Below, piece by piece: positions 11,947 to 57,268 of a stretch of 64,000 nucleotides of DNA. The position numbers were made by a program, and so were the translations under genes. The stretch is from Lytechinus pictus. Taxonomy: Eukaryota. A model generated the notes under the pieces. It was not told the DNA's origin. It searched no databases and saw only the letters and a program-made list of their open reading frames with translations. The stretch lies in assembly GCF_037042905.1 (NCBI RefSeq), contig NC_087245.1, positions 10,542,001 through 10,606,000 of the forward strand, read 5' to 3'. Within the stretch, counting starts at the first letter, position 1. Every line of letters begins with the position of its first letter.

Positions 11947-12288
11947 AAAACAATATGAAATGAATTGAAAATTGTACACCTCTTGTATACAAGGTACATG
12001 TATGCACAGATCAGAGTTTAAACATATTTTGATCATTCATTTTATATTAACTTATGATGTGAATTCTGAAAAGTACCTTGCTGTGTCTCTTTAATGACAA
12101 AATCATGTGGAAAATTGTATACATGATACCATTGAAAGTCATAGTTAATTAACTCACTATGGGTGTGAGGAAAGTACCAGCAAGAAACATAAGCCCGCAT
12201 TGTGCCTGGCAAAGGTCAGAACAGTATACGCTCGCTCCCTTTTCTCTTGAAAGATTCAAACCAATTTCTTATCTCCTTCTCAACTTAC

Positions 12289-13934: not shown

Positions 13935-14024
13935 ATCTCTTGAAGTTCTTCAGAGAGAGCCTCTTACGGAGCTGCCGCACTCGGTTCACTGATCCATCCA
14001 TTCCGTTCACGTTTGTTTCTCCAT
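13935..14024 (-). CDS. Internal 90-nt coding exon (NGETNVNGMDGSVNRVRQLRKRLSLKNFKR), possibly the N-terminus of a PFTAIRE/PCTAIRE (CDK14/16/17-like) kinase
   Basis: Minus-strand acceptor TTTTATTCTTTCTAG and donor GTAAGT. Open in phase 1-1 and joins in frame with the 38417-38444 exon. The motif R-V-R-Q-L-R-K-R-L-S recalls K-M-K-K-L-R-R-T-L-S of CDK14 (from memory; identity tentative). Confidence 0.7.
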
Positions 14025-18495: not shown

Positions 18496-21400
18496 AACAA
18501 GTGGAACGCCTCTGGCAGTCTCGCCTGCATTACGCGATTTAATATAGCAGCAGTGCTAACTTTGAAAACTACTATAAAATAATCATTCACAAAAACACCA
18601 TTCATATAATGACATAATACCATGTTCATTGACCATAGATGACATTTGAACAGTGACTTAAGACTTGTCAACTACACCCATGTCCACATTTCATTCACTC
18701 TATCCATAAACTTTCAAAGTTATGATGGCAATTCAACAATTACCCCAACATGGCCTACGTTTATTGACCTTAACTGACCTTTTACCTTGGTTTTGTGACC
18801 TGAAACTCACAGGGGATGTTCAGTGATACTTGATTACTCTTATATCCCAAGTTTTATGAAATAGATCCATAAACTTCAGAGTTAGGATGGTAATTTAACA
18901 AAGACCCCCAACACGGCCAAAGTTCATTGACCTTAAATGACCATTGACCATGGTCATGTGACCTGAAACTCGCACAGAATATCCAGTGGGACTTGATTAA
19001 CCTAATGTCCAAGTTTCATGAACTAGATCCATAAATTTTCAAAGTTATGAAGGTAATTAAAAAAATACCCCCAACTTGGCCGAAGTTCATTGACCCTAAA
19101 TGACCTTTGACCTTGGTCATGTGACCTCAAACTCAGGAAGGATGTTCACTAATACTTGATTAACCTTATGTCCAAGTTTCATGAACTAGATCCATAAATT
19201 TTTATGATAGTAATTCAAAAAATACCCCCAACTTGACCAAAGTTCATTGACCCTAAATGACCTTTGACCTTGGTCATGTGACCTGAAACTGGTGCAGGAT
19301 GTTCACTAATACTTCATTAACCTTATGCCCAAGTTTCATGAACTAGGTCCACATACTTTTTATTTAGATGTCATTTCAAAAACTTAACCTTCGGTTAAGA
19401 TTTTGAAAATAATTCTCCCAACATGGTCTAAGTTCATTGACCCTAAATGACCTTTGACCTTAGTCATGTGACCTGAAACTCAGGCAGGATGTTCAGTAAT
19501 ACTTGATTAACCTTATGGGCATTTTCACCACAGATGGACACAGAGGCAAAAAAATCAAGTTGATATTCATGTAAAATGCTTTATGTTTTTTAATAAAACA
19601 AGACCTGAAGTTTCTGAGACTAATTTTTTTTCCGACTCTGGCAGCCATTTTTTATTTCAAAATGGCTGCCAAAGTATGGATACAAATTAGTGTTGAAAAT
19701 AGTATATTGATACATATTTTGTTTTGACAGATTTTTAAAGAACAGGTTTGATCATGATGTTTTCGCCTGTGATTTAGCTTGCTATTATAACACTTTTTAA
19801 AATCCCACAGAAAGAAACACCAGTAATTCATTCATCTGATAAAAAAATATTGATGAAGTATGTGATATGGTATGTAATGTCAGTTACCGAAAACATGAAC
19901 TTTTTTTTCTCATTTCCTGGAAAAGAGGATATATTATATGAAACTTGGTAGATTTCCTCTCTAGGTAACACCCCTCCCTTCTACACCAAAATTAAAGATT
20001 ACCAATTAACAATGAAGCCATAGGGTACCATTAAATATATGTAATGTCAGTTACCAAGTGGAAAATGTAATGTCAGTTACCGAGATGTAATGTCAGTTAC
20101 CATGATAAAACGTTGGTTACCAATATTGAAATGCAAATATGTGGTCAATTTTATGGTGAAGAAATATTGTATACTTGTTATTTAAGTCAAGTCACACCAG
20201 AAGGAGCTTGATATTGACTTTTAAAAGGTATGGTTCACAAGGAATACTATATGAAATTATGAAGGAAGTTGCATTCCCATCGTGCAAAAAAAAATTACTA
20301 TGAAATTGTTTTGTACATGCACTTACCAAGTACCTAATTGTTTGTATCAGAAAATTTTTTGTTTGGTTTTCGGGGGGGGGGGGGTAGGGGGTACTTTTCC
20401 CAACCTATTGCCTAAATCTGCAACATTTTTAAAGCTTAACATTGTGATGAAGGGGATTTCCAGGGTCCCTTTTTAGTTTCTAGGATTCTTTTGAGCATTG
20501 CCTCGCTAAAAGTAAATTCCTGGTTTTTATACCTGTTAGTAGTGTGGATGTGTGATACAATTTTGTTTTTGGTTTACAAGTATAGATGAAAAGTGAAATT
20601 TGACAGTTCTGATCAATGTTGCATGGATCTACTAAAACTGTGGTGTTCTAATTTACAAATAGTTCAGTTTCAGTTTAGAAGCTGGAGTTTATTTTTTGTT
20701 GACAGCTTATAAAAGAAATTAGCAAAGAAAATGATTAAACAAATTATGAAGAGAATTGAAATCCGACAGATATGAACAAGCATTGCTTGCACTGACCAGA
20801 ATAGAAATCAATAAAACTACATGGCTGCATGAGATTCGGGGAAGGGGTACATGTAGCCTAGGGGAGGAGACCCTTATTCATTTTTGCCTTTTTTGAGGGG
20901 AGGGGGAGGTTGGAGAAGGAAAAGGTTTAAAAAGTCAATATAAAACTGATGAATATATTATGGGTGTATAGTCAGAAAAATCCATGTGTACAGTCAATGC
21001 AATATTAAATTACTGTAGGAAAACATGTAGCTGCTATGACCCCCCCCCCCCCCCCCGAGTAAGTAAAACATACATTTCTTATCTTTTGATAATTAGAAAT
21101 GTGAAGTATTATGAAACTTTTATGATTTTAAAAAGCCTTACATATAAGTACCAAGAAAATTATGCCTTTGAAAATCATATAGCACTGGTAAATGTTAATG
21201 TGTATTGTCAGTTACCGACAAGTAATAATAAAAATGTTCAAATCAAAGAAAGGAATTAAGAAAAAGAAAAAAGTTTTTCATTGAAATGTTCCTAAAAACT
21301 CGGGTATACTTCCACATCAAGCTCACTTTCATGTGAAGCCCTGCACAGAAGATACAATGCAATGATTCCACACATTTGACTTCCATGTGTTATCTCTATG

Positions 21401-28572: not shown

Positions 28573-30379
28573 AACTAGAGATGCTCGGCGGGTCGCGCGG
28601 CCGAGCACATGTATCCTTCAAACCCACCGCGTCATCCGTCATTGCGATATATAGAGCTCACACAGATATTTGACAAAATAAATACAATTGTCATGGCGAC
28701 AATGACCCTGCCAACATTTTGCCTGTGGGTACCAAATTTGATGACAATAAGACCCCTGTTACATCTGAAAGTTTCCTACCCGAGACCCGACCGAGTCCAC
28801 TTGCAACCTTGACTGGATTATTGGTGGATTAGCTTCGCGAACGGACCAAGTCCGAAATGTGGTCTGTTTACATCACAGCGTTCTTTCCCTCCCCTATCGG
28901 TACGGTTTCGACAGTATCCGATTGCTGACACCAAAGGGTGCTCTCGATCTAGGCTCTGAATAATTTGCGCGCGCTAATTGAAGTTGTTTCCATTTCGTTA
29001 CACTCGTCGGCTGGTACACAGAAATGGTGGGACATGTGCCGATCATTTCCTGAGAGAGTCAAACGACTCTTTACCCGAGATTCTGGAAGAATGCTGATGA
29101 TCCCAGCAGTCGTTGAAGATTATGATCGACTTTCACTCAACTCAAATCAAAGACTCACAATTCACATGTCGCATGCCGCAAAACATTCAAAGAACGACGG
29201 GGCTGGGGAGGGGATAGCGCGCTATGACGTAATTTGACAGCTGGCGAACGGACCGAGATAGGTTTGAAAGCTTGTGTGCGTTTACATCTACGAATCGGTG
29301 GACCGGGGCCGGCCGATACCTACTTGAGACTACCTCTGGATGTGGTCTCGGGTAGGTTCGCTAAAAGGTGGCCCGAGGTAGGTTTGGGATGTTTACATCT
29401 GATTTCTTTCCGACCCGAAGTAGGCCCCGGGCCGGCCCGAGGTAGGGAATCTCTCAGATGTAACAGGGGTCTAATATGACGTAGCAGCATGACTCTGCAT
29501 AACCTAAAATATTGTCCAGTATCACCTGTTGGGGAATACAATTATAGAGTAATATAAACCTGACCCTAAGACCCCCCGACAAAAATGATAGGCATCTTCG
29601 CTTCACCTTCTAATATTGCTTCTGTGTGCCAACTGTTATGACAAACTGGAAAAAAGCAGATGTTACAGGTTTTACCAAATTTTCCACAAAAATGTGGTTA
29701 CCATGGCAACAATGTCTCCACCCACTCCAAAATCATTAGGCGGCTTTGCTTTACCATAATGGACCTTCAGGACAAATCAGAAGATAATTGGAGAAGAAAT
29801 GCAGCCAGTAGAGCGCTCACAAGGAAATCTCTGCTATTTCCACAAAAACTCTTGTGACCATGGCAACGATGTCTCCACCCACACCAAAATCAATAGGCGG
29901 CTTTGCTTTACCATAATGGACCTTCATGCCACATTTGAAGATGATCGGAGAAGAAATGCAGCTGGTAGAGCGCTCACAAGGACATCTCTGCTATTTCAAC
30001 AAAAACTTGTTACCATGGCAACGATGTCTCCACCTACACCAAAATCGATAGGCGGCTTTGCTATAACACACTCAACCTTCATGCCACATCTGAAGATGAT
30101 CAGAGAAGAAATGCAGCTGGTAGAGTGCTCACAAGGACATCTCTGCTATTTCCACAAAAACTCTTGTTACCATGGCAACGATGTCTCCGCCCACACCAAA
30201 ATCGATAGGCTTCTTCGCTATACCATACTCAACCTTCATGCCACATTTGAAGATGATCGGAGAAGAAATGCAGCTGATAGAGCGCTCACAAGGAAATCTC
30301 TGCAGCGTACGCGGCGGCGGCGGCGGCGCAACGAGGCCAAATCCATAGTATCCTCCAAGCTCTGTTCGGGGGATACAAT
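28573..30379 (-). mobile_element. Second Helentron-like family with ~156-bp x4 tandem array
   Basis: AACTAG end with hairpin TGCTCGGC...GCCGAGCA, subterminal TGTATCC / GGATACA, (GGC)n and hairpin at the other end. CCATGGCAAC recurs at 29701, 29858, 30013 and 30170. Confidence 0.75.
28751..29471. mobile_element. Harbinger-like MITE with TAA TSD nested in the Helentron-like element
   Basis: TAA|GACCCCTGTTACATCTGA ... TCAGATGTAACAGGGGTC|TAA. Confidence 0.85.
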
Positions 30380-38107: not shown

Positions 38108-38270
38108 GGGGGAGCTAGTGTTTCATCAACATTTTTGTCCGACAAGTTGTCAGATCTGACATCTTTCCTTGATGTTGATTGGCTAAGAAGCACTGTTACT
38201 ACGGCAACTGTCGGATAGAATGGGACTTGTCGGATAAAACGTCTGACAAGTCCTTTCATGAAACGCTCCC
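38108..38270. mobile_element. Short palindromic MITE
   Basis: GGGGAGC..GTTTCATCAA at left, TTCATGAAACGCTCCCC then CTGG at right; internal TGTCCGACAAG / CTTGTCGGATA. Confidence 0.6.
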
Positions 38271-38416: not shown

Positions 38417-38444
38417 TTGTCAATCTCTTTGGTTTGGCATCCAT
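38417..38444 (-). CDS. Putative first coding exon (MDAKPKRLT, phase 1) of the minus-strand gene
   Basis: Minus strand ATG GAT GCC AAA CCA AAG AGA TTG ACA A|GTAAGT, directly downstream of a CpG-rich promoter-like patch; splices in frame to 13935-14024. Confidence 0.6.
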
Positions 38445-38489
38445 TGGATTTATTGGTAGTATAAGTTCCAAACTGGTTAAATTACAGCC

Positions 38490-38700
38490 ATGGGCGTCAC
38501 CCTAAGGCTAAGTCAAGACTCTCCTCAGCTCAGCTCAGCAGACGATGTTGTGAATCGTACACGGGCGGCACCGTACTCGGTCGGTCTGCAGCGCAGCTGT
38601 ACTGTACATCTATCACATGCGTTCGTCGACTCGACTTGTACCATGGGTCCATGACTTGACGCACGACGCGGTTAAGTTTCGGGGGGAACCCCCAAATAAC
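38490..38700 (-). promoter_or_regulatory. CpG-rich putative promoter/5' UTR of the minus-strand gene
   Basis: Dense CpG in a CpG-poor background, not evidently a repeat, CRE-like TGACGCA near 38657, adjacent to an ATG exon with a canonical donor. Confidence 0.5.
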
Positions 38701-43548: not shown

Positions 43549-44225
43549 TAGAATGCAATTATGAATGATAATGAAAGAAAATAAAGGTGAAGAAGAAGAA
43601 AGAAGAAGAACAAGAATTCTAGCTCCTCTTTTTCAAGCGCCTTGAGCATTTCAACAAAGTGGATAATGGCGCTATATAAATCTTATGTATTATTATTATT
43701 ATTAAGAAGAAGACGAAAAAGAAGACGAAGAAGAAGAAGAAGAAGGGGAGAAGGATCGCGCGGAGGAGAATGACGATCGAGGTTTAAACGAGAAGATGAA
43801 GAAACTGAAAAAAAAAAGGAACAGAAGAAAATGCTTGGAACAGAACTTAGGGGGGTGGGACTTGAATAATATGAAAGAAAAAGAAGTAAGGCGATAATGA
43901 GAAAGAAAGAAAAAAAAAAACAAATATGAAAGAAGACCTCCGGGCACAATAATTAATCTACAACAAAAGGAAATGAGGTTTTTGCGATTACACCGAAATC
44001 AATAACTTTAGATATCTACGTCCTCGCTTGGTTGATGAGAATTCAAAATAATTATGATTCCAAGCTGAGCGCCAAGGTTGTCTTCAGTAAGAGTGCACGC
44101 TCTTGCGCGTTCAATGACTTAATGATCAATAATAATCAATAAAAAGTCTCAATCTGCGCGATCTATACGGGAGCGGGGGATATCGATGGGGCCTTCCTCG
44201 GGACCGTTATCTTATTTGCATAATT

Positions 44226-44265
44226 GATTGGGTCACGTGGTTACCATTGACAACAAAGTATGGCG
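44226..44265 (+). promoter_or_regulatory. Promoter motif cluster: reverse CCAAT, E-box GTCACGTG, RFX X-box GTTACCATTGACAAC, YY1-like ATGGCG
   Basis: GATTGG 44226-31, GTCACGTG 44232-39, X-box 44240-54 and ATGGCG 44260-65, within a CpG-rich patch just upstream of the first exon. Confidence 0.7.
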
Positions 44266-44362
44266 ACGAGACTGGGAATCGAATCTGACAGCGAAGAAAA
44301 CGCTTTTCCCGTTTACTGGTCCTTTTCTTCGTGCTAAGACATGTGACTTTTGATCTGGAGGT

Positions 44363-44388
44363 ATGCAGCCGAATTTATCAGGAGGAAG
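44363..44388 (+). CDS. Exon 1 of an uncharacterised 274-aa protein (MQPNLSGG-R)
   Basis: ATG...GGAAG|GTGAGT donor, phase 2, in frame with exon 2. Confidence 0.7.
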
Positions 44389-44716
44389 GTGAGTTCAACG
44401 TATGATAAAGACTGAGTTAAATATTTTATTTTTGTCAAAAGCTTTGATCTTTTCCGACTTTTTTACCCGTTGTGTTTTGTTAGTTACCCCTTCTTCCTCT
44501 CCGGTTTCGCGTTGATCAGGCTCGCTGGCGGGACCGCCTAAGTTCTGTTGGGACTCCGTCTTGACATTCAGTACGCGAGCCCGAACTTCAATTTTTTAAT
44601 AAAGTTTACTTTAGTTAGATTATACTTGACCTTTATTTTATAGGCGTTTCGTTAATTTCACGGGAGCGATCTCTCAGCAAAGTGGTCAAATGTTAGTTAC
44701 TGATAGTTTAAATTTA

Positions 44717-45946
44717 TGATGGGGTGTCCAAACTTTGCCGTTTGCGGACTTTTCAAAAATATTCTTCAGGCTAAAATTTGTTCACAATTTATGCAAAACC
44801 AATTTAAAGGAGAATGAAACCTTTGGAACAAAATAGCTTGTGTGAAAATAAAAAAATCAAAGAAACAGATCAACGATAGTTTGAGAAAAATCAGACGATT
44901 AATGAGAAAGTTATGAGCATTTGGATATTGCGATCACTAGACACTAATGCTATGGAGTCTAATGGAGATCCTCCCTTTGGCAATGTGACAAAGATGTGTG
45001 ATGTCACTTGTGAACAACTCTCCCCATTTTAGTATATATTTCACTTAAACTGCCTCTTTTATCACATCTATCAGTAGATCATGCATTCTTTTTATAGGAG
45101 AGCATGTAATACAGATTTTTAAAGAAAACATCATGGATGAAGAAAAAGGAAAAAGATAAATTTTTGGGGTATTTTATAGTCAATCAAAGAGAAAGTTGTT
45201 CACAAGTGACATCACACATCCTTGTCGCATTGCCAATAGGAGGATCTCCATAGCATTAATGATTGCATTTCAAATGCTCATAACTTTCTCATTATTAATA
45301 TTTGTCTGATTTTTCTCAAACTTTCTTTGTTCTTATTCTTTGATTTTTCTGTTTCGAAACAAGCCAACTTGTTCCAAAGGTTTCATTTTCCTTTAAGAAA
45401 TAGTTACCACATTGACGGCAAGATCGTAAACTATAAAATCATTGACAAAAATGTGAAGTTGGTCAAGGGATTTCGCCGGTATCGCGATCTCAAAATTCTA
45501 TCCTGATCGACGAATGCGCGCTGTGCAGGAAAACCGTTCTGAAAAAGTGTGACCTAACTTCGCGGACCAAAGATTTTGAGGAGATTTAAACAAAAACTCA
45601 AGCTCAAAAGGTGAGATATTTATATCAGATTGACGACAAAATGCTATAGAATTAGTCAATACCACATTGAACTCACATTTTTTATATCTGCTTGCAAAAT
45701 GATGATATCGTGATGCTTGTTAAGGATATCAGATTTCTTCGGAACGGGCACTAACGGTGACAAATTTGCCGATCTTTTGTCAATATTTTCATGAATACTG
45801 AACTCATCCTGAAGAAACTTACACCAAAGGCTAATTTTAGGTCGCTTTTCACGTTGATGATGTCAGATTTTAAGGATATTGGCTAGTTTTTGAGATAATG
45901 ACCGTCCGCGAAGTATGGACACACGCGAAGTTTGGACTCACTGCCA
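44717..45946. mobile_element. TA-flanked TIR element containing a nested Kolobok-like MITE
   Basis: TA|TGATGGGGTGTCCAAACTTTGC ... GCGAAGTTTGGACTCACTGCCA|TA (imperfect TIR). Confidence 0.5.
44808..45392. mobile_element. Kolobok-like palindromic MITE family C
   Basis: TTAA|AGGAGAATGAAACCTTTGGAACAA ... TTGTTCCAAAGGTTTCATTTTCCT|TTAA with long inverted arms. Confidence 0.85.
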
Positions 45947-46036
45947 TACATATATTCTATTAAATTCTAGGCAAGTTCTGGCCTGAGAAAACCCAAAAAA
46001 GGCAAAAATGCAACAACAAAAAACTAAATTCATATA

Positions 46037-47310
46037 CAGTGCATCCCAAAAAAAACTATACACTTTTGAAATGGCTGCCAAATAAAAGGTATATCACTTT
46101 GGGGGGAAGACTTATACATATTGAAAGCCAATAAAGTCATCTTTCAAATGACACCAAAATGTTGGAAAACTATTTATGCTTGAGTGAGCACTACCCACTT
46201 AAACAAAGCCGGTATGAAAATTAGGGTGGGCAGGAATATGCCTTTCGGTTTCTTTCAGTTTTTGAGAGGCAAGTCCCTTGGAACTTGCAAACTTGAGGGT
46301 GTTGTGATGAATTGATGGTCATTCATTATCAATTTAAATTGTTAGAGCAAATTCATGAATTATCAATTTGAAATTCCATGCATGAGTGAGCGTGAATTGC
46401 AATCTTTAGTGCAGCATTTTAACTTTAAAATGTGGGTCTCAGCAGTGTGTTCATTTGAGTCGGGAGAATAGGGGTAAGAAACGACTTCAGTGGGTGAAGT
46501 AAGCTGATGGGAAAAGGGTCAACAGAACGTTTAGCCTCCCTCCTACAGGTCGATCTGTCTCTCCCCCCCTCCTGTTGAGATCGAGACTGATTGCTATTAC
46601 ATGTACGCATTAAGTGCAGAGCGGACTGTCAATTTGATAATAAATTCTAAAATTAGGTCATCAACTTTTACCTATCAATCATTCAATCAACAATCTGCTA
46701 GTAAATCAACTCAATCAATGTGATCAATCAAATATTCACCTTTTTCAATAAATCATCAATCAAACATTCAGCTTTTCCAAAAAATTATTTCATAAATCAT
46801 CATAATTAGTCAAGTTCCTAATAATCATTAAATGGAAAAGAAAGACCCGTCAACCATATTAGTTACTTGGCATTTAAGTTTTATATACCATCCAGGAGAA
46901 AGAAAGGGGGTGGAGTGCGGGGGTGAGTACATGACATGTAATTTGTAAGAGAACTCAAAGAAGAATGCCCCTTTAACCCAGTCTTACCCTATCTCACCCC
47001 CTTGAATGTAACAGGTACCATCACATTACTCTGACTCTCATAAGCACACTTGCTAAGATCCACATAATACACTAAAAATGCTATACTCAGATTACAATTC
47101 CTGTTTACTCATGCATTACATATATTTACATTTCAATTTAGTAACTCATGAAATTTGCTTTAGAAACCCAAACTGATCTCAATTCATCAGTAATTTAGCA
47201 TAACACCCTTAACTTTGCAAGTTCCAAAGGACTCGCCTCTAAAAAAAACTGGGAGGCTAATTCCTGCTCACCCTAGCAAAGGCTAGTCTCTCAGGAGGGG
47301 TGAAAGGGGT

Positions 47311-47346
<36 letters not shown>

Positions 47347-47846
47347 GTGTTAACTTAAGTGTTCTGTTGACCCATATCCTGCCAACCTACTTCCCCCACC
47401 TACATGTAAGTCCTATCCCTATTCTGACTTCCATGAACACATTGCTGAGATCCACTTGAAAAAGTGAAAAATTGTATTTCATGTTCACTCATGCATTAAA
47501 TTTCAATTTAAGAATTCTTGAAATTTGCTCTAAAAACCTAAATTGATAATGCTTGATCATTTATTTATCAAAACACCCTCAACTTTGCAAGTTCCAAGGG
47601 ACTCGCATCTCAAAAACTGAAAGAAATTGGAAGGCTAATTCCTGCCCACCCTTATTTTCATACTCTTTTTTTCAGTGGGCATTGCACACTCAAGCATGAA
47701 TAGTTTTCCAACTTTTTGGTGTCAAACTGTCATTTAAAAGTTGACTTTATTGGCTTCCATATATATGTAAGTGTTTTCCCCCAAAGTGATATATTTTCTT
47801 ATTTGGCAGCCATTTCAAAAGTGTGTAGTTTTTTTGGGACGCACTG
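46037..47846. mobile_element. Tc1/mariner-like foldback element with roughly 400-bp inverted arms
   Basis: TA|CAGTGCATCCCAAAAAAAACTATACACTTTTGAAATGGCTGCCAA ... TTGGCAGCCATTTCAAAAGTGTGTAGTTTTTTTGGGACGCACTG|TA. Confidence 0.85.
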
Positions 47847-48732
47847 TAGATCTAGAGTCTAGGGTCTACCAGCCTAAAGCTATAGTATAGGCTATATGAA
47901 TTTATAAAAAAAAATCCAGAAAAATAATTAATAGGCCTATTAAGTTAGATAGTCTTTGTTAGGCCTATAGGCCTACTAACATAAGTAACATTAAAAATAT
48001 TGAAGGTTTGAGGAAAATGCAATGAAGATTAAGAAAATCATTAGAATTTCTACTTCATGAAGACATGATGACTAAACAAATTCTTCTTTTAGAAGTGGCA
48101 GTGAAACTTTTTTGTTGATATACTGAAGCCTGAAGGTACAATAAAAACCATTGCCAATTATTTTAGACAATGAAATTTCATTGATCTTTAAATTCACGAT
48201 ACATCACATGGGAAGCTGATCGCATATAACGTCACAAATTAACAAAAAAGAAATTCAAATAGATCTAGAGTCTACATGCATAACTTCGATCCGATGCCAA
48301 TCCGATGGATTCCCTCAATTTCACCAATAATATTTTTAAATTATTTTTAATGAACTTCTTTTTTTTATGACTTTAAAAATTCTTAATGAGTTTAAAAATT
48401 GATTCAATTCAGTCTCCCTGCTCTTGTCTAGATATTAAGTAAAAGTAAAGATATAGAACATATATTTCCTAACATCTTATTATGATTGAATATCAACTTT
48501 ATGGTAATTTATAAAGTGTGCACAAATTATGGTCACCCTGTCACTTGAATTTACATATTTGCCAAATGCATGCTGTATACAGTCCAAACAATTGTCCACT
48601 TTTGTCCTACATTTCTGATACCGGTATGCAATTCTGATATGATCTGGCAGGTTAGAGATGCAAAACCCTGTTTATTCAATATGAAAACAAAGGGAAGTAG
48701 ATCTACATGCAAATCAATGTAAATAAGTCCAG

Positions 48733-48904
48733 GTGGGTGTTTCATAAAGCTGTTCATAAGTTAAGAGCGACTTTAAGAACGACTGGTGAACCTTTCTTGT
48801 GGTAAATGGTATATTGAATTGGCGATGGTTTAGCGCGTAAGAAGGGTTCACCAGTCGCTCTTAAAGTCACTCTTAACTTACGAACAGCTTTATGAAACGG
48901 CCCC
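48733..48904. mobile_element. Palindromic MITE inserted at CCAGG (Harbinger-like, CWG TSD)
   Basis: Near-perfect arms GTTTCATAAAGCTGTTC...GACTGGTGAACC / GGTTCACCAGTC...GAACAGCTTTATGAAAC; CCAGG on both sides. Confidence 0.8.
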
Positions 48905-48907
48905 CAG

Positions 48908-49031
48908 GGCTCTGTAACACAAAGGTTAGCGATTAATTGTATGCTTGATTTTCACGATTGATTGTACATGTACATTGTAGCCACTGCAATCAATGTTCTC
49001 TGATCATTGCTAAGCTTTGTGTTACGAACCC
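48908..49031. mobile_element. Second palindromic MITE sharing the CCAGG site
   Basis: GTAACACAAAGGTTAGCGAT ... ATTGCTAAGCTTTGTGTTAC; CCAGG on both sides. Confidence 0.7.
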
Positions 49032-50457
49032 CAGGTTACTCTTCTTTTTACAACAAAGTACATGTACAGAACTAATGTTAAAAAATGAACAATATGACAA
49101 GAAATTTAAATATAAAACAAGCAATATGACAATACAAGTTACATAAAGCAATTTTTATGGTGATTGCAGAAAAGAAAATTGAAATAGTAGATTAAGCACA
49201 TCTTTACAACTGAAATGGAGAGAGCATTATGAGCATACACCTGTAGAGAGGAGATAGAAAGATTGAACTTGAAGAAAAGATAAAGGAGGAAGGAAAAGAG
49301 TGGCAAGCAAGAAGGAAAAGAAGAAGGAGACTAGAAGAGGAGGAGAAGAAGACAAAGAAGAGTTCATGGGGCTCTACATGTATACATGCATCTCTTCTTC
49401 GGAGACAAGAGTGAGAAAATGAAATTTTCACCAAAGATTCTTATTTTGACTTTTAACTATCTGTTGTTTCACTGTTTTGTCAAAAAAAGCCCAATAAAAA
49501 TATGAGTTGTCACTGACTGATGTCCCCTCCCCTCTGTAATGAGTAATGAATTCCTGGATTTGCTTGATTGTACGTGTAGTACATGTAGGCCTACACTCTC
49601 ACATTGCCATGGGTATTGGCTCAGTAAATGTGTGTATAGTACATGAAGGCCTATATGTAGTATGTGCATTTATCATCTCTTTTCTAGGATAGAATTGGGT
49701 CTGTTCCCAAAATAGTATTCTCTGTGTCTAGTAAAAAAAATCAAGTTGGCATTTGCGTTATCACATGAAACATTGCAAACTGAGAATATGATGTTCTGAA
49801 AAGGAGTGTACTATGCATGTATGTTTGGCAGCCAACTTTTCTGTTAATTAATAGCCAAAAAGGAAAGACTCACTCTTTTTGTGATGGGAGAGAAGTTTAA
49901 TACGGTACTCAATACTGTTTATTGTTTAATCAATTGGCATAAAAAGGATAGAGTTTTTGAGTTTTTATTTTTTTTAATTATTATTATTATTATTATTTAT
50001 TATTATTATTATTTTTTTTTTTTGGGGGGGGGACCATTTCATGAAAGTTATCACTTGTCAGCACTGCCAAGCTGTCATCCTGTAGGAAATTACAGGAAAC
50101 TATAGTACCTGTATTTAAATATCAATTTCATCCCATCACTTCTGCTTTAAAAGTAGATTTAAGTATATATCTGTTTTGTAGTACAGTTGAAGTTTTTGAG
50201 TAGAAAATGAATTTTTGTAGATCATTTGCTGTTGCTTGTTTTTAGAAGTGAATGTGAACAATTGATTTAAACATTTTAAACATTTTCTTATAAGCAAGAA
50301 GTCCATTTGAATTCCACCCTGTCATAGTCCCTTCATTTTTTTCCTACAGTAAGTGCATGTGTACAATATTTATTGGTATCCAGGGACTTGAGATTGTCAA
50401 TTTTCTTTTCAATTAAATTGTATCCCAATTTGCTGTTTCTCTTTGTATCATCCATAG

Positions 50458-50721
50458 AAGCGACGATCCACTTGAACGTTCATTCCCACACATCAAGCTT
50501 GCCTCTCCTGAAGATGAACTGTTGAACAAATCCCTGTTGGAATCCCTGACCCCAGCTTCTCCTAGCTCTAGTGCTCCATACCGTCTTCCTAAGCTCAGTT
50601 CTACAGGGTCGGTCTCTTCAACATGTACATCAGGTAGTGATCCCTTAGAGGGTACCCTACGCAATGGACAGTCATCGACGGATGGTCTCAGCCCACGCAG
50701 TCAACAGAGCATCAAATCCAA
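50458..50721 (+). CDS. Exon 2 of the uncharacterised 274-aa protein
   Basis: Pyrimidine tract + TAG acceptor, GTAAGT donor, 264 nt, phase 2-2, open (SDDPLERSFPHIKLASPEDELLNKSLLES...QQSIKS). Confidence 0.85.
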
Positions 50722-51370
50722 GTAAGTTTACCCCTGAAAGGCTGTATAAGTAATAAGTCTAGTTATAAGTTGCAGTATCATACTACATATATGCACTGTG
50801 TTATAATTCAGTTTTTCAAACACTGATAACGTACAGAAATAAGAATTATTGTAGTGCAAAAAAATTGTATATTACACCTACATAGAACAACAAATAACAT
50901 GTATTTTTCAGCATTTAAAACTGGCAATCATTTGTTTGCTTCAATTGCCTGCATATTGTAATGTATGCTTGTTTAAACTAGTAGAGCATCCTATGGATTA
51001 GATTTAAGATAAGTACACATTGCAAAAATCTTTCACGAAACATGCATGTAGACTTTAGATACTGCATTATACATTAATAACTTTGTTCATGCTTCAGATA
51101 ATAATTTTCATTGAGAATCTATATCAGGCTGTTAATACCACCGTCTGTTTGATGGGCAAGTCTACATGTATCGTTTATTGACAGATTTTCTTGTACTAGA
51201 AAAAACATTTTAAGCATGTGGACTATAATTGTTTGAATTGTGGTACAATGAAGATACGAGTAACGATTGTCATTTCATATGCTGGATATTTTTTTCTGTG
51301 TTACTTCTTTTGCGGAGGATGGATTACATGTATATCCTGACACACTATTTTGTATTGTTATTATTCATAG

Positions 51371-51646
51371 CCTGTCCAAGGTGTCCAGTAGGAGTACTCG
51401 ATCTAGCAATCGCCTTCCCATCCCTCCCTACACCATAGCACAACTCCGACGGGCGCAAAACATCCATGTGCCATCCTTTAAGAAGGCACAGTTTGCCCCT
51501 CTTGTCTCTAGTCCTGCTCGGAAAGCAGTCATAGAAGAAGACAGTAAGACAGATAGGACTGAAGTGCATGATAGGACCAGAGTTGAACAGGAGATACATG
51601 TCCGGGCAGAGCCAGAAACAACAAGAGCAACTACTAGATATTCACA
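51371..51646 (+). CDS. Exon 3 of the uncharacterised 274-aa protein
   Basis: TTATTCATAG acceptor, GTAAGT donor, 276 nt, phase 2-2, open (LSKVSSRSTRSSNRLPIPPYTIAQLRRAQNIHVPSF...TTRYS). Confidence 0.85.
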
Positions 51647-51905
51647 GTAAGTCAGATAGAAAGAAAATGATACATGAAATGGGAGTGAAGATAGGAAATC
51701 AAAGTAGCATATTTTTAGAAGAAATACATAAAAGATGTAGATAAAAAGTACATTTCATGGAAATATTACAGCCTCTTTCAAAGTGCAGCAAGTGAATTAC
51801 AAAGTTGATGGAATTGGAAGGTATTGATAGATTCAGATATTTGAGAGATTTTCATGTAAATAATTTGGATTAGATGTTGGAATAAAAGCAATTCTTCCTT
51901 ATTTA

Positions 51906-52798
51906 GGCGGTGCTGCACCATCCCGAGTTTGCTCAATCTCGAGATTTTAGCCCGATCGGCCTACTTCGCGATTAATCTCGAGATTCAAGAAACCCCGTCT
52001 CCACCATCGCAAGAAGAGCGATTCCTGCTCGAGCGAGGCAACAAGCCCGATATTCCGAGCATGCGCACTTTCGGATCTTGGAGTTTCAACGGCCCGCGCT
52101 TTTGAATAACTTCCCGCGATATGCAAGCAATGTACTCCTTTCACTAGCACTTTCGCCGAATTCGACCGGTGTTATGCAACAATCCTCTCAGCGAGTGAAG
52201 AAGTGATGTATTCTTCGTTAAATATGATGGCGGAGTAGGAGGCAACGACAGAGAGAGAGAGAGAGGGAGAGAAGGAGGAAAGAAATGCTATTTGCTCACA
52301 TTTTGCGAAGGAATAAGACGACACTGCTGTCAGTGTTGTTATTGAATATGACCATCGTCGATGAGCGCCTCCCCCTTCGGTCTGGTCTCTTCCAAAATCC
52401 ATTCACTGGTCGGACACCATCGTTGCTGATTAGGCAATTGATGAACGCTATTCGCGATATTCGCATGCATAAAGTTGACTTTCGCACGTGTTTATGTTTT
52501 GACCAAGGCGGAAGTGGAACGCGAATTGCATTATGGACTGACGTCATGAATAAATTACCCCGAGTCCAATCTCGAGTGCGTCTGCACCTACGAATTAGCG
52601 GGATAATTCGTAAAATAGCGCGCTATTTTGCAAATAAACCCGAGTTGACTTGGGATTGCAATCTCGAGATTAATCCTACGAACTAGCGCGATAATTGCGT
52701 CTGCACTGCAAACTATCTCGAGATTTTTCAGATCGGGATAATTTGCCGGATCAGAAATAGCGCGCTAATTTGAAAACTCGGGATGGTGCAGACGGCCC
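51906..52798. mobile_element. Harbinger-like MITE, CpG-rich
   Basis: CTGCACCATCCCGAGTTT ... AAACTCGGGATGGTGCAG; TTA/TCA flanks; repeated ATCTCGAGAT palindromes. Confidence 0.75.
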
Positions 52799-53997
52799 TC
52801 ATGAGAGTTTTATCAGTAACTTTTTCACCAGCCAATCAGATGGAAGGGTTTTCAGCAGCTGTTGTACATCAAAATCTATGATGATATTCTTTATGAAATG
52901 CTACCCTGATGTGAACATTTTGACAAAGTGATTTTTTTTACTTGTAGCAAGTCATCTTACATAACAGACTACATACATGCAAAGTTCTGCTGAAAATATG
53001 GGTTCCATGTTTTATTGGTGTCCCCCACCCTTCTCTCTTTCCCTGTTTTATAGTATTTAATTGTTTTTGTTGGTGTACAAGAACCTCATGTTAGCAGTTG
53101 CCAAGTGTTATTCTTGCAAAGTCCTTGACAGATATACTTATTTGTTTCCTTTATGTCAACTGCCAGAGGCGTGGAGAGATCTAACCGCCTTTCAAATGTT
53201 TTATAAGGCATTTCTACAATTATAAGAGTAAGAGTGAGTTGCATAGTCTTTTTATAGCACAAAAGCTTTTCTACTTCATTATCAGAAAATCAATATATAG
53301 TGAAATAGTATTGATTTATACTCCTTGGTCAATGTGTCCTCAGGCTATATGCACAAAAGAAATCTTGTTGTGTAAGAAAGTGATCAGAGATGATTTCCTT
53401 AATGGAGTCTATTGTAGCCTAGTGACAGAGTCTTTTTTTTTTTTACTTGTACACACGTACATGTGTGGGGATCAATAGCTAGACTTACATTTATAATGGA
53501 GTTTTTGAAGTCATTGGTAGTATTTGTTGAGAATGTAAAACAAAATATACAGTTGAAATTGAAGAACGATTATGGATGAAACAAATACTGAAAAAAGTGA
53601 ATCTGAAGGATGCATTTATAAGTATACATGTACTTGTTTGATACACTGTACATCACATATGGCACAACTCTTTTTGTATGTGTGGTGTTAAATCAACCCA
53701 CATTCTGTTTGTGCTTGGATTTGTGAAATTGCTGTCTTTAAAGGTTCAGATTGGAAATCAAAATCCCTCTTCCCCAGTGCAAAGTTTATTTAATTGATGA
53801 AAAGAGGCTAAACTGCAATGTTTGCCCACAAATAAACTCATTGTTGAGTCTTCCTTTAGATGCGTAGTGTTGTATGTCTGTAAAAAGCATATCTTGTTTA
53901 CGATTTTGATTGTAGTGTTGAGGCACTTCCCTGTATTGATTTGGAAACACCTGCAAGGTCCTCTTTCAAATAGGCTTGTTTAATTTCTGGTATTTAA

Positions 53998-54486
53998 AGG
54001 TCAAGTCCACCCCAGGAAAATGCTGACTTGAATAAATAGAGAAAAATCAAACTAGCATAGTGCTGAAAATTTCATCAAAATCGGATGTAAAATAAGAAAG
54101 TATTGACATTTTAAATTTTCGCTTATTTTTCACAAAACAATGATATGCACAACTAGGTGAGTCAGTCGATGTCCATCACTTACTATTTCTTTTGGTTTTT
54201 ATTGTTTGAATTATACAATATTTAATTTTTTATAGATTTGACAATAAGGGCCAACTTGACTGAACCATATTAAACAATGCTAATTCCGCATGTTTAGGGA
54301 GGAGGAAATTAGAATATTTCATATTTCATATAATAAAATACAAAAGAAATAGTGAGTGGATGACGTCAGCCTCCTCATTTGCATACCAGCCAGGATGTGC
54401 ATATAACTGTTTTGTGAAATTAAGCAAAAATTTAAAATGTCATAACTTTCTTATTTTACATTTACATTTTGGGGTGGACTTGTCCT
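53998..54486 (-). mobile_element. Kolobok-like MITE family A, copy 4 (opposite orientation, internal deletions)
   Basis: TTAA|AGGTCAAGTCCACCCC ... GGGGTGGACTTGTCCT|TTAA. Confidence 0.85.
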
Positions 54487-54993
54487 TTAATGTTGGTCTG
54501 TTGGTCTTATCGTTTTGTTGTGCTTTTATGTGTCCTTTGTATTGCTACATGTACATACATGTATGTAAATGTACAGTATGCTAATGTTCAGATCCTCTGA
54601 AAAGAATCTACATTTTGTCAATGAATTTGTCCATAATTAACATTGATAATATTCATGCAGATATAGCAGTAATGATATCAGTAACAATTCTACTTGTTTT
54701 ATATTGGGATCAATACAATTTCATAGTCATAATCTTTCTCTTATCACTCTAGTTGAAAGTTGAAGTATAAGTGAAGAAGTAAAGTACATGCACATTGAAA
54801 GATACTGTATATGAATTAAATATGAAGAATTGCCATACACATGATGTACATGTATGCAGTCAAAGTTAGGGGGGGGGTGCAAAGTGGAGAAATTATTTTG
54901 ACCACCTTGTTTTGACAGAACATTTAATTCAGACTTGATGTAATATGTATATTATAAATCATAATTTGAATGACTGTCTCTCCTAATCAACAG

Positions 54994-55141
54994 TGCAAGT
55001 AGAACTACATATGGACCTCGTAGTGCTGCTGTTTCTATGACCATTCCCATGGCCAGTGGTACTGATTACTCCCATCCACCTCCCGACCAAAAGGCTGAAT
55101 GGAGACTGTCGCCTCATAGACATAAAAACTATGACAATCAG
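54994..55141 (+). CDS. Exon 4 of the uncharacterised 274-aa protein
   Basis: CTCTCCTAATCAACAG acceptor, CAG|GTACGT donor, 148 nt, phase 2-0, open (ASRTTYGPRSAAVSM...AEWRLSPHRHKNYDNQ). Confidence 0.8.
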
Positions 55142-55575
55142 GTACGTTTAAGTTTTAATAATCAAAACTGATATTCTTTGAGAGTTATACCCATTAGCCT
55201 TAAACACTGTAATCTGACAGAATATTTTTCCGTTACTCAGATTTATTGATTTTTTATTTTATTGTGAAGGTAGGTATCTTTGAGAATTTGATTAATTTAA
55301 ACAGTGAATATGACAAGCAAAGATAACAAAAGGATGGGAATGCCACAAAGTATCACATTATACATTTTTTTTTCATGGTTATAATCTTCAATCTAAAATT
55401 AATAGAAATGGAAATTGCATTTTCTAACTCATAAATCATCATATGAATTTTTTTAGAATGTATTTATTATTATTATGCATATTTTTCCATTTAACTATTT
55501 AATTATTTATATTTTTTGTCAATTTATTATCACTTTTTGTTATACTTGTGATGAGTTTTCAATGAACAATTTTTT

Positions 55576-57080
55576 GTCTCGCCTGCTAACAGAGCGAGAC
55601 TATAGGCGCCGCTTTTCCGACGGCGGCGGCGGCGGCGTCAACATCAAATCTTAACCTAAGGTTAAGTTTTTGAAATGACATCATAACTTAGAAAGTATAT
55701 GGACCTAGTTCATGAAACTTGGACATAAGGTTAATCAAGTATTACTAAACATCCTGCCTGAGTTTCAGGTCACATGACTAAGGTCAAAGGTCATTTAGGG
55801 TCAATGAACTCAGACCATGTTGGGAGAATTATTTTCAAAATCTTAACCGAAGGTTAAGTTTTTGAAATGACATCATAACTTAGAAAGTATATGGACCTAG
55901 TTCATGAAACTTGGGCATAAGATTAATCAAGTATTAGTGAACATCCTGCTTGAGTTTCAGGTCACATGACCAAGGTCAAAGGTCATTTAGGGTCAATGAA
56001 CTTTGGTCAAGTTGGGGGTATTTGTTGAATTACTATTATAACTTTGAAAAGTTATGGATCTAGTTCATGAAACTTGGACATAGGGTTAATCAAGTATTAG
56101 TGAACATCCTTCCTGAGTTTCAGGTCACATGACCAAGGTCAAAGGTCATTTAGTGTCAATGAACTTTGGCCAAGTTGGGGGTATTTGTTGAATTACCTTC
56201 ATAACTTTGAAAATTTATGGATCTAGTTCATGAAACTTTGACATTAGGTTAATCAAGTACCACTAAATATCCTGTGCGAGTTTCAGGTCACATGACCATG
56301 GTCAATGGTCATTTAAGGTTAATGAACTTTGGCCATGTTGGGGGTCTTTGTTAAATTACCATCCTAACTCTGAAGGTTTATGGATCTAGTTCATGAAACT
56401 TGGACATTAGGTTAATCAAGTACCACTGAATATCCTGTGCAAGTTTCAGGTCACATGATCATGGTCAATGGTCATTTAAGGTCAATGAACTTTGGTCGTG
56501 TTGGGGGTCTTTGTTAAATTACCATCCTAACTCTGAAGGTTTATGGATCTATTTCATAAAACTTGGGATATAAGAGTAATCAAGTATCACTGAACATCCC
56601 CTGTGAGTTTCAGGTCACAAAACCAAGGTCAAAGGTCAGTTAAGGTCAATGAACTTTGGCCGTGTTGGGGGTATTTGTTGAATTACCATCCTAACTCTGA
56701 AGTTTATGGATCTATTTCATAAAACTTGGGATATAAGAGTAATCAAGTATCACTGAACATCCCCTGTGAGTTTCAGGTCACAAAACCAAGGTCAAAGGTC
56801 AGTTAAGGTCAATGAAATTAGGCCATGTTGGGGTAATTGTTGAATTGCAATCATAACTTTGAAAGTTTATGGATAGAGTGAATGAAATGTGGACATGGGT
56901 GTAGTTGACAAGTCTTAAGTCACCGTTCAAATGTCATCTATGGTCAATGAACGTGGTATTATGTCATTATATGAATGGTGTTTTTGTGAATGATTATTTT
57001 ATAGTAGTTTTCAAAGTTAGCACTGCTGCTATATTAAATCGCGTAATGCAGGCGAGACTGCCAGAGGCGTTCCACTTGTT
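55576..57080 (+). mobile_element. Helentron-like element with ~163-bp x7 tandem array, copy 2
   Basis: T-run|GTCTCGCCTGC...AGCGAGAC hairpin, (CGG)n, seven CAGGTCACA units spaced 163-192 bp, ATGCAGGCGAGAC, CACTTGTT|T-run. Confidence 0.85.
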
Positions 57081-57157
57081 TTTTTTTTAGTTCTTGTTAT
57101 AAGAATTATTTAATTGAACATGCCTCTCAATGATTGTTCTGGTATCTCCATTAACAG

Positions 57158-57268
57158 GCTGTGACATCAAACTCTGGGCCTTACTCCCGTAAGTTTGTCA
57201 TACACTGTTCTGCACCCAAATCCTGGCTCCATATGAAGTTAAGACGCAGCAAGACCACTCTGACGTGA
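57158..57268 (+). CDS. Exon 5 (terminal) of the uncharacterised 274-aa protein
   Basis: CTCCATTAACAG acceptor, phase 0, AVTSNSGPYSRKFVIHCSAPKSWLHMKLRRSKTTLT then TGA. Total CDS 825 nt. Confidence 0.75.
   Translation, partial: AVTSNSGPYSRKFVIHCSAPKSWLHMKLRRSKTTLT

Follow-up and report, generated by a model that had tools for sequence, protein, structure and literature searches.

Does the gene at positions 44226-57268 of a 64,000-nucleotide stretch of the Lytechinus pictus genome (NCBI RefSeq assembly GCF_037042905.1, contig NC_087245.1, positions 10,542,001 to 10,606,000 of the forward strand; hereafter the window, in which all positions are counted) encode a protein of cilia or sperm flagella, and by what means might such a protein act? 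The original prediction, made from the letters alone, had seen here a complete but unrecognised gene of five exons, with an RFX X-box in its promoter and a largely disordered product that might belong to the cilium or flagellum, for example as a microtubule inner protein (MIP). Our follow-up confirms that the locus is indeed a transcribed and spliced five-exon protein-coding gene, and its product belongs to an old family of marine invertebrate proteins that seems to be undescribed. As the leading but tentative interpretation, the protein would serve as an RFX-driven adaptor of motile cilia or flagella whose ancestors would have recruited the phosphatase PP1.

Gene structure and transcription

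The coding sequence joins five exons on the plus strand, namely 44363-44388 (residues 1-8 plus 2 nt), 50458-50721 (residues 9 to 96/97), 51371-51646, 54994-55141 and 57158-57268, the last of which carries the most conserved segment of the protein and the stop codon; together these 825 nt encode 274 residues and a stop. The introns in between measure 6069, 649, 3347 and 2016 nt, all run from GT to AG, and interrupt the frame in phases 2, 2, 2 and 0, precisely as had been predicted. The spliced translation shows 0 differences from RefSeq protein XP_054751491.2 (P0003 in our collection), the product of the uncharacterized L. pictus locus LOC129257230, and 7 differences from the L. variegatus protein (LOC121423362); the S. 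purpuratus protein (LOC755623) is 85% identical. RefSeq thus holds models of the gene in three sea urchins (L. pictus, L. variegatus and S. purpuratus), and to call it unrecognised was wrong: the gene is already annotated, its function is uncharacterised and its record names neither a family nor a domain; its discovery is not news.

Reads across the splice junctions, the first check that the original prediction had proposed, were sought in four of the 24 listed RNA runs (X22, X19, X1 and X5, for which tissues are not given) over positions 43900-55550, and they were found at all three junctions within that stretch. The first junction (44388>50458) is crossed by 52 reads in X22, by none in X19 and by one contig of X1 and one of X5; the second (50721>51371) by 22 reads in X22, 2 in X19 and contigs in both X1 and X5; and the third (51646>54994) by 23 reads in X22, none in X19 and, again, contigs in both assemblies. 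One X1 contig of 1413 nt contains exons 2, 3 and 4 in order and extends 690 letters past the mapped stretch. For the few X19 reads that fall in exon bins, the first mate always maps to the minus strand, as expected of a plus-strand transcript provided that the library is stranded.

The fourth junction (55141>57158) lies outside the mapped stretch. It is supported indirectly, by the identical RefSeq protein, by the conservation of the peptide encoded by exon 5 and by an intron position that is apparently shared with relatives. For instance, in four short database open reading frames the similarity ends six residues before the GP motif of the C-terminal block, right after a Q, and this is also the point at which an isoform from a clam diverges; the Q is likely the CAG of a splice acceptor, which would place an intron there. 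A window-wide scan with a profile hidden Markov model also matches exons 2-5, but the result is circular, as the profile contains the L. pictus protein. Two S. purpuratus isoforms (X1 and X2, i.e. P0002 and P0005, unrelated to the run labels) differ by one residue at the junction of exons 1 and 2. In the window, a tandem acceptor AGAAG at 50456-50460 would yield an isoform difference of this kind.

A family with three conserved blocks

A profile of 9 deuterostome sequences yielded 46 matches at E<=1e-3, 32 of them at 1e-10, among 1.84 billion representatives. A wider profile found 35 proteins, of which 27 are named, and every name is uncharacterized, hypothetical or unnamed. The named hosts include, on the deuterostome side, sea urchins, starfish, a sea cucumber, a crinoid, two hemichordates and amphioxus and, on the spiralian side, bivalves, gastropods, two nemerteans, the brachiopod Lingula, the bryozoan Watersipora and the flatworm Macrostomum. 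No vertebrate, tunicate, arthropod or nematode member occurs among these named hosts, an absence that is unproven, given that only 16 of the 46 representatives have names while 5 were looked up without yielding one and 25 were never looked up. A tree built on 46 rows, from which fragments and several closely similar bivalve or isoform rows were omitted, broadly follows animal phylogeny: echinoderms fall together with hemichordates and a three-row clade, and molluscs group with each other; amphioxus stays unplaced, as do several long rows. The proteins P0029, P0032 and P0040, together with the fragments P0035, P0036, P0038 and P0041, form a well-supported clade with an N-terminal motif of its own (W.Q....Q..PR) and a different second block.

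The L. pictus protein has a mass of 30 kDa, is basic (isoelectric point 10) and is rich in S, P and R. Family-wide statistics were collected on the 50 full-length rows (at least 190 residues) among 52 and compared with shuffled sequences, where it should be kept in mind that the rows are kin and not independent draws. The median length is 243 residues and the isoelectric point exceeds 9 in 49 of the 50 rows. Block 1, PYRLPK in L. pictus (residues 49-54; 50576-50593, plus strand), has the family form PYRLP[KR], and the pattern [PAST][YFH]RLP is found in 47/50 rows versus 0.3 after shuffling. Block 2 (residues 115-140; 51423-51500, plus strand) has the form PP.T..Q..R....VP.F..A, in which PP.T..Q..R, with a short predicted helix at residues 119-127, precedes the core P.F..A (34 of 50 rows versus 1.8). 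The C-terminal block extends over about 45 residues, W.L.......[FY]D.......GP[YF]SR.F...C..P..WL.MK, and includes the most conserved segment, GPYSR.F..HC..P..WL.MK in L. pictus (57176-57238, plus strand): all 50 rows have GP[YF]SR (0.0 shuffled) and 48 have P..W[LMV][RKH] (0.5 shuffled). Of the motif-like blocks to which the original prediction had drawn attention, the second and third thus prove to be conserved throughout the family, whereas block 1 had been missed.

Modelling of the whole protein by AlphaFold2 with 37 sequences gave no globular fold, at a predicted local distance difference test score (pLDDT) of 56 and a predicted template modelling score of 0.19; the helices in the model (residues 119-127, 233-236 and 261-266) lie in two of three cases on conserved blocks. 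The C-terminal fragment P0036, modelled with 52 sequences, likewise shows one helix and no globular fold (pLDDT 62.6), and a Foldseek search with this fragment model returned nothing at E<=0.001. The product had been described as largely disordered, and as a prediction this is borne out; the models fit a disordered chain whose conserved blocks would fold on partners.

The early impression that the protein lacks a known domain agrees with our Pfam searches, which recognised no family in four exon peptides, in P0001/P0002 or in P0003, nor in 42 relatives, 4 of which had unrelated matches (E 0.06-0.19) below the curated cut-offs. Various other candidates were discarded. The five designed coiled coils matched by profile A5 in the PDB (E 0.3-3.9) are not credible relatives, and the ESM Atlas suggestions for P0001 (DUF2406 and Pal1, best score 0.86) and for P0026 (best score 0.80) stay under the bar of 0.9 and were not accepted as families. 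None of twelve gene or protein identifiers from the family turned up in the main texts searched, although subscription papers fell outside that search, so that a ciliome or sperm table may already list the protein; subsets of the identifiers were also absent from the supplementary files searched, which may use other gene identifiers and whose silence says nothing on expression. The family outline, i.e. three conserved blocks and no Pfam model over a range from echinoderms to flatworms, is new in the sense that it seems undescribed.

A PP1-docking-type motif where the C-terminal block begins

The RVxF-type docking motif for PP1 has a form defined in PMC3366979, and a passage of PMC3507197 presents its tryptophan version as a peptide of high affinity. 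Expressed as [RK]x?[VI][^P][FW], the motif occurs in 33/50 rows of the family versus 11.3 after shuffling. At the W that opens the C-terminal block, [IVL] is found at position -2 in 44 of 51 rows and K or R at position -4 in 35 of 51, and the resulting RVxW, which lies in a predicted disordered region, is present in strict form in 30/51 and in loose form in 35/51 rows (one of the 52 rows has no W, and the Macrostomum row, scored at its second W, counts as a miss). It occurs in hemichordates, the sea cucumber, the crinoid and most spiralians (molluscs, nemertean, brachiopod and bryozoan), a distribution which suggests that it is ancestral in the family. The L. pictus protein has the degenerate form KAEW at this position (residues 222-225; 55091-55102, plus strand) and no match to the general pattern anywhere along its length, and is thus not a canonical RVxF-type interactor of PP1. 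The motif points to phosphatase docking in most relatives and not in the L. pictus protein itself.

A complex prediction was made for a PP1 catalytic subunit from a metagenome (L027, residues 5-298) and the last 63 residues of P0011, a family member from Ptychodera that carries the canonical RVxW. It scored 0.00, 0.34 and 0.33, and with a median of 0.33 versus a mark of 0.34, three controls at 0.00, a stand-in PP1 and alignments left unused, it speaks neither for nor against docking. Calcineurin docking is associated with another pair of patterns, LxVP and PxIxIT. LxVP is found within block 2 in 16/50 rows versus 3.8 shuffled (L. pictus has none, reading IHVP), but its partner PxIxIT does not exceed the shuffled level (11/50 rows versus 14.6), and this lead is weaker than that offered by RVxW.

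PP1-like catalytic subunits were also encountered on contigs of giant-virus metagenome-assembled genomes, at L001:1369-2325 (minus strand) and L002:1444-2388 (minus strand). Mammalian PP1-alpha is a match for the former (E 5.5e-127); the gene beside the latter presumably encodes an eIF4A-type helicase.

The promoter and its X-box-like site

An X-box-like site, GTTACCATTGACAAC (GTTACC-ATT-GACAAC, with a 3-nt spacer), occupies 44240-44254 and precedes the ATG by about 110 nt. Relative to the X-box consensus GTNRCC-N0-3-RGYAAC, as printed in PMC10530576, one half-site is perfect and the other has one mismatch. Transcript cover starts at about 44305 in a contig of X5 and slightly below 44289 in X22; the 5'-most contig cover begins about 50-65 nt downstream of the site, which puts the site near the probable start. 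The proximal X-box that had been proposed thus stands as a near-consensus site that misses the strict consensus by one base. With a loosened pattern, 30 of 3000 dinucleotide shuffles of the 500 nt preceding the ATG contain a match (about 1% by chance), and with a still looser pattern 260 of 3000 do; for a fixed pattern fitted to GTTACCATTGACAAC, 0.25 occurrences are expected in the window. Human X-boxes cluster close to the transcription start according to PMC5838959, and in a choanoflagellate the RFX motif is reported in PMC10530576 for 21.9% of ciliome promoters versus 2.0% of all promoters. The site makes a ciliary role more likely and does not settle the question.

The promoter lies in a CpG-rich stretch (observed/expected CpG of 1.1-1.4 over 43901-44900). 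It further contains what we take to be an octamer-like element (ATTTGCAT, 44214-44221), a reverse CCAAT element (ATTGG, 44227-44231) and an E-box (CACGTG, 44234-44239), the last of which adjoins the X-box-like site. An upstream open reading frame of 25 codons (44260-44337, plus strand), out of frame with the main ATG, could tune translation, provided that the transcript starts upstream of 44260; its own ATG (AAAGTATGGCG) follows 5 nt after the X-box-like site and is transcribed only in that case.

Other X-boxes occur elsewhere in the window. Of the 4 copies of a 157-bp tandem repeat (29681-30303), three hold the perfect palindromic X-box GTTACCATGGCAAC and the fourth a near match to it, and a repeat of this kind could scatter RFX sites through the genome. 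A strict match (GTTACTACGGCAAC/GTTGCCGTAGTAAC) is found at 38195-38208, near a CpG-rich region, inside a stretch of about 170 bp that is bounded by GGGAGC...GCTCCC and looks like a small inverted-repeat element.

A candidate adaptor of motile cilia

How can these elements be combined? The interpretation that we prefer, though we would stop somewhat short of calling it probable, is that of a non-enzymatic adaptor, driven by RFX, which serves motile cilia or flagella and ancestrally recruited PP1. A ciliary or flagellar role as such, i.e. as this adaptor or as a MIP, we do consider moderately probable. The protein is predicted to have no fold of its own, its three short conserved blocks becoming ordered on a partner. 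With its X-box near the start, the gene would be controlled by RFX in the cells that make motile cilia or sperm flagella, and there the adaptor may bind an axonemal or basal-body structure. At a further remove, the ancestral RVxW might dock PP1 and thereby hold the phosphatase near local substrates. In sea urchins, where the canonical docking residues were lost and the rest of the block was kept, the protein may act mainly as an anchor or as a weak PP1 binder. All named hosts belong to groups with motile-ciliated epithelia. PP1 regulators, moreover, are described in cilia, as is the case for IIIG9/PPP1R32.

Various observations weigh against this adaptor. In the literature searched, neither tissue, cell-type nor proteome evidence for a ciliary role was found. 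The X-box is imperfect: the strict consensus is matched 0 times in the 500 nt that precede the ATG, the loosened pattern also matches in 5 of the 128 tiles of the window, and the loosened patterns were chosen after the site had been seen. Moreover, in the choanoflagellate only 44 of the 239 motif-bearing promoters belong to the curated ciliome and 195 lie outside it (PMC10530576). As to PP1, RVxW is absent from all 3 echinoids, L. pictus included, from both starfish and from amphioxus; a loose PP1 motif occurs in about 25% of human proteins according to PMC3507197; and the RVxW counts are weakened by the relatedness of the rows. The W is invariant where the rest of RVxW has been lost, and may thus serve a contact other than that with PP1. 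A sequence search of solved structures in the PDB with profiles A3 and A4 gave 0 matches at E<=10, where it should be noted that short-motif homology can escape such a search. Finally, there is no vertebrate among the named members, though vertebrates keep motile cilia.

Alternative explanations

The alternative that survives best, and which we nevertheless place on the unlikely side, is that of a disordered signalling adaptor that operates outside the cilium, in cytoplasm or nucleus, with PP1 or another phospho-regulated partner, the X-box being incidental in a CpG-rich promoter. Such a promoter, with E-box, CCAAT and octamer-like sites beside an imperfect X-box, the 195 of 239 motif-bearing promoters outside the ciliome and the lack of a named vertebrate member all agree with this, as do motifs that are generic for signalling proteins, i.e. 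RVxW, LxVP and RxxSP (27/50 rows versus 10.4 shuffled). Against it stands the lack of arthropods and nematodes among the named members, which is what one expects for a gene of motile cilia. The position of the X-box, about 50-65 nt from the 5'-most cover, is likewise where functional X-boxes cluster (PMC5838959).

A true MIP along the doublet lumen, which would bind tubulin by an undescribed module with GP[YF]SREF as a divergent Mn-like unit, appears improbable. The family members are small, basic and predicted to be disordered, with short helices on conserved blocks, like many MIPs, and the L. pictus gene shares with these proteins a candidate RFX site. The pattern [YF]..[DE][FY], which we take to resemble Mn units, is found in 39/50 rows versus 3.5 shuffled, and for the oyster member the ESM Atlas lists TEX33/CIMIP4 at rank 6, with a score of 0.78 that is below the chance bar. 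The specific signatures argue the other way. For the SNYG families we used [YIV]GW, presumably a suitable proxy, and it occurs in 0/50 rows. Among the MIP module signatures as defined from PMC10973386 (NWE, GFG, PYG, SNYG and Mn), those of the NWE, GFG, PYG and SNYG type are absent from the 50 rows or at chance level (G[ND]WxE 0/50, GFG 0/50, PYG 2/50 versus 1.7 shuffled). The Mn syntax [TS][TS]x4[YF], with one match in L. pictus at residue 241, occurs in 26/50 rows versus 17.8 shuffled, which is within the shuffle range (maximum 30). In L. pictus, the supposed unit reads YSRKF and has no acidic residue. None of the 42+9 members matches a Pfam family of MIPs, and no PDB chain matches; PMC10973386 cites a structure of the sperm doublet of a sea urchin, its presence among the searched chains being unchecked. 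Whereas the MIP families are conserved in mammals, the family studied here has no named vertebrate member. The suggestion of the original prediction that the gene encodes a MIP hence fails the signature tests that were run, and finds no solved relative.

More improbable still is a basic germ-line protein outside the axoneme, i.e. in the nucleus, in manchette-like structures or in mRNA granules, that is switched on by RFX during spermiogenesis, a role with which the isoelectric point of 10 and the S/P/R-rich composition would agree. Macrostomum lignano, whose sperm have no flagellum, has a member, but this copy fits a somatic ciliary role equally, its epidermis being multiciliated. RFX2 regulates spermiogenesis broadly according to PMC4498915; on the other hand, the Pfam searches found no nucleic-acid-binding domain. 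The last alternative, a chance join of open stretches, can be dismissed as next to impossible: the reads, which cover junctions 1-3, refute it for those three, the product is identical to a RefSeq protein and the conserved blocks follow one another in order across exons 2-5.

In comparison with known systems, the preferred adaptor has its nearest counterparts among disordered PP1 interactors such as taperin (motif KISF, PMC3507197) and IIIG9/PPP1R32: in 30/51 rows, the family shares the basic-x-[VI]-x-aromatic motif in a conserved stretch of a chain that is predicted to be disordered. There is, however, no sequence relation that we could find to the named PP1 regulators, and the L. pictus protein has no canonical motif. 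At best, its mode of action would resemble that of small disordered proteins of the axoneme and of disordered PP1 regulators.

Other elements in the window

Intron 4 contains a 163-bp tandem repeat array (55646-56896) outside the coding sequence, and a second array of the same repeat, in opposite orientation and 87% alike over 1 kb, is located at about 18500-19517. Intronic inverted-repeat elements at 44800-45450, 48730-48970 and 53990-54470 attract far more RNA reads than the exons do, nearly all of them partial matches; these reads stem from abundant repeats that are transcribed elsewhere. Candidate exons of a divergent gene on the minus strand, with good splice signals, are found at 38417-38503, 13935-14024 and 12158-12205, with MDAKPKRLT and RVRQLRKRLSLKNFKR among their translated sequence; Pfam recognised no family in the frames of this candidate gene that were scanned, and a Pfam scan of 112 of the 168 selected neighbouring frames likewise found nothing.

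Biological significance

Axoneme-anchored phosphatases regulate ciliary beating and, to our knowledge, few axonemal phosphatase anchors are known outside algae and mammals. In its widest form, the proposal would be that PP1-targeting subunits under RFX control, serving motile cilia or sperm flagella, make up an ancient and so far undescribed family of the Bilateria that persists in ciliated marine invertebrates and is apparently missing from vertebrates, arthropods and nematodes, which we regard as possible but rather unlikely. The cilia and sperm of sea urchins are classic preparations, so that both the ciliary and the PP1 claim are cheap to test; should these tests fail, the protein would be merely another uncharacterised protein of invertebrates. 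What is new is the outline of the family, together with a conserved PP1-type docking motif that was lost in some deuterostome lines. If the wider proposal is true, the loss of the docking residues in sea urchins, starfish and amphioxus, with the anchoring module retained, would be a natural experiment that separates the anchor from the recruitment of the phosphatase.

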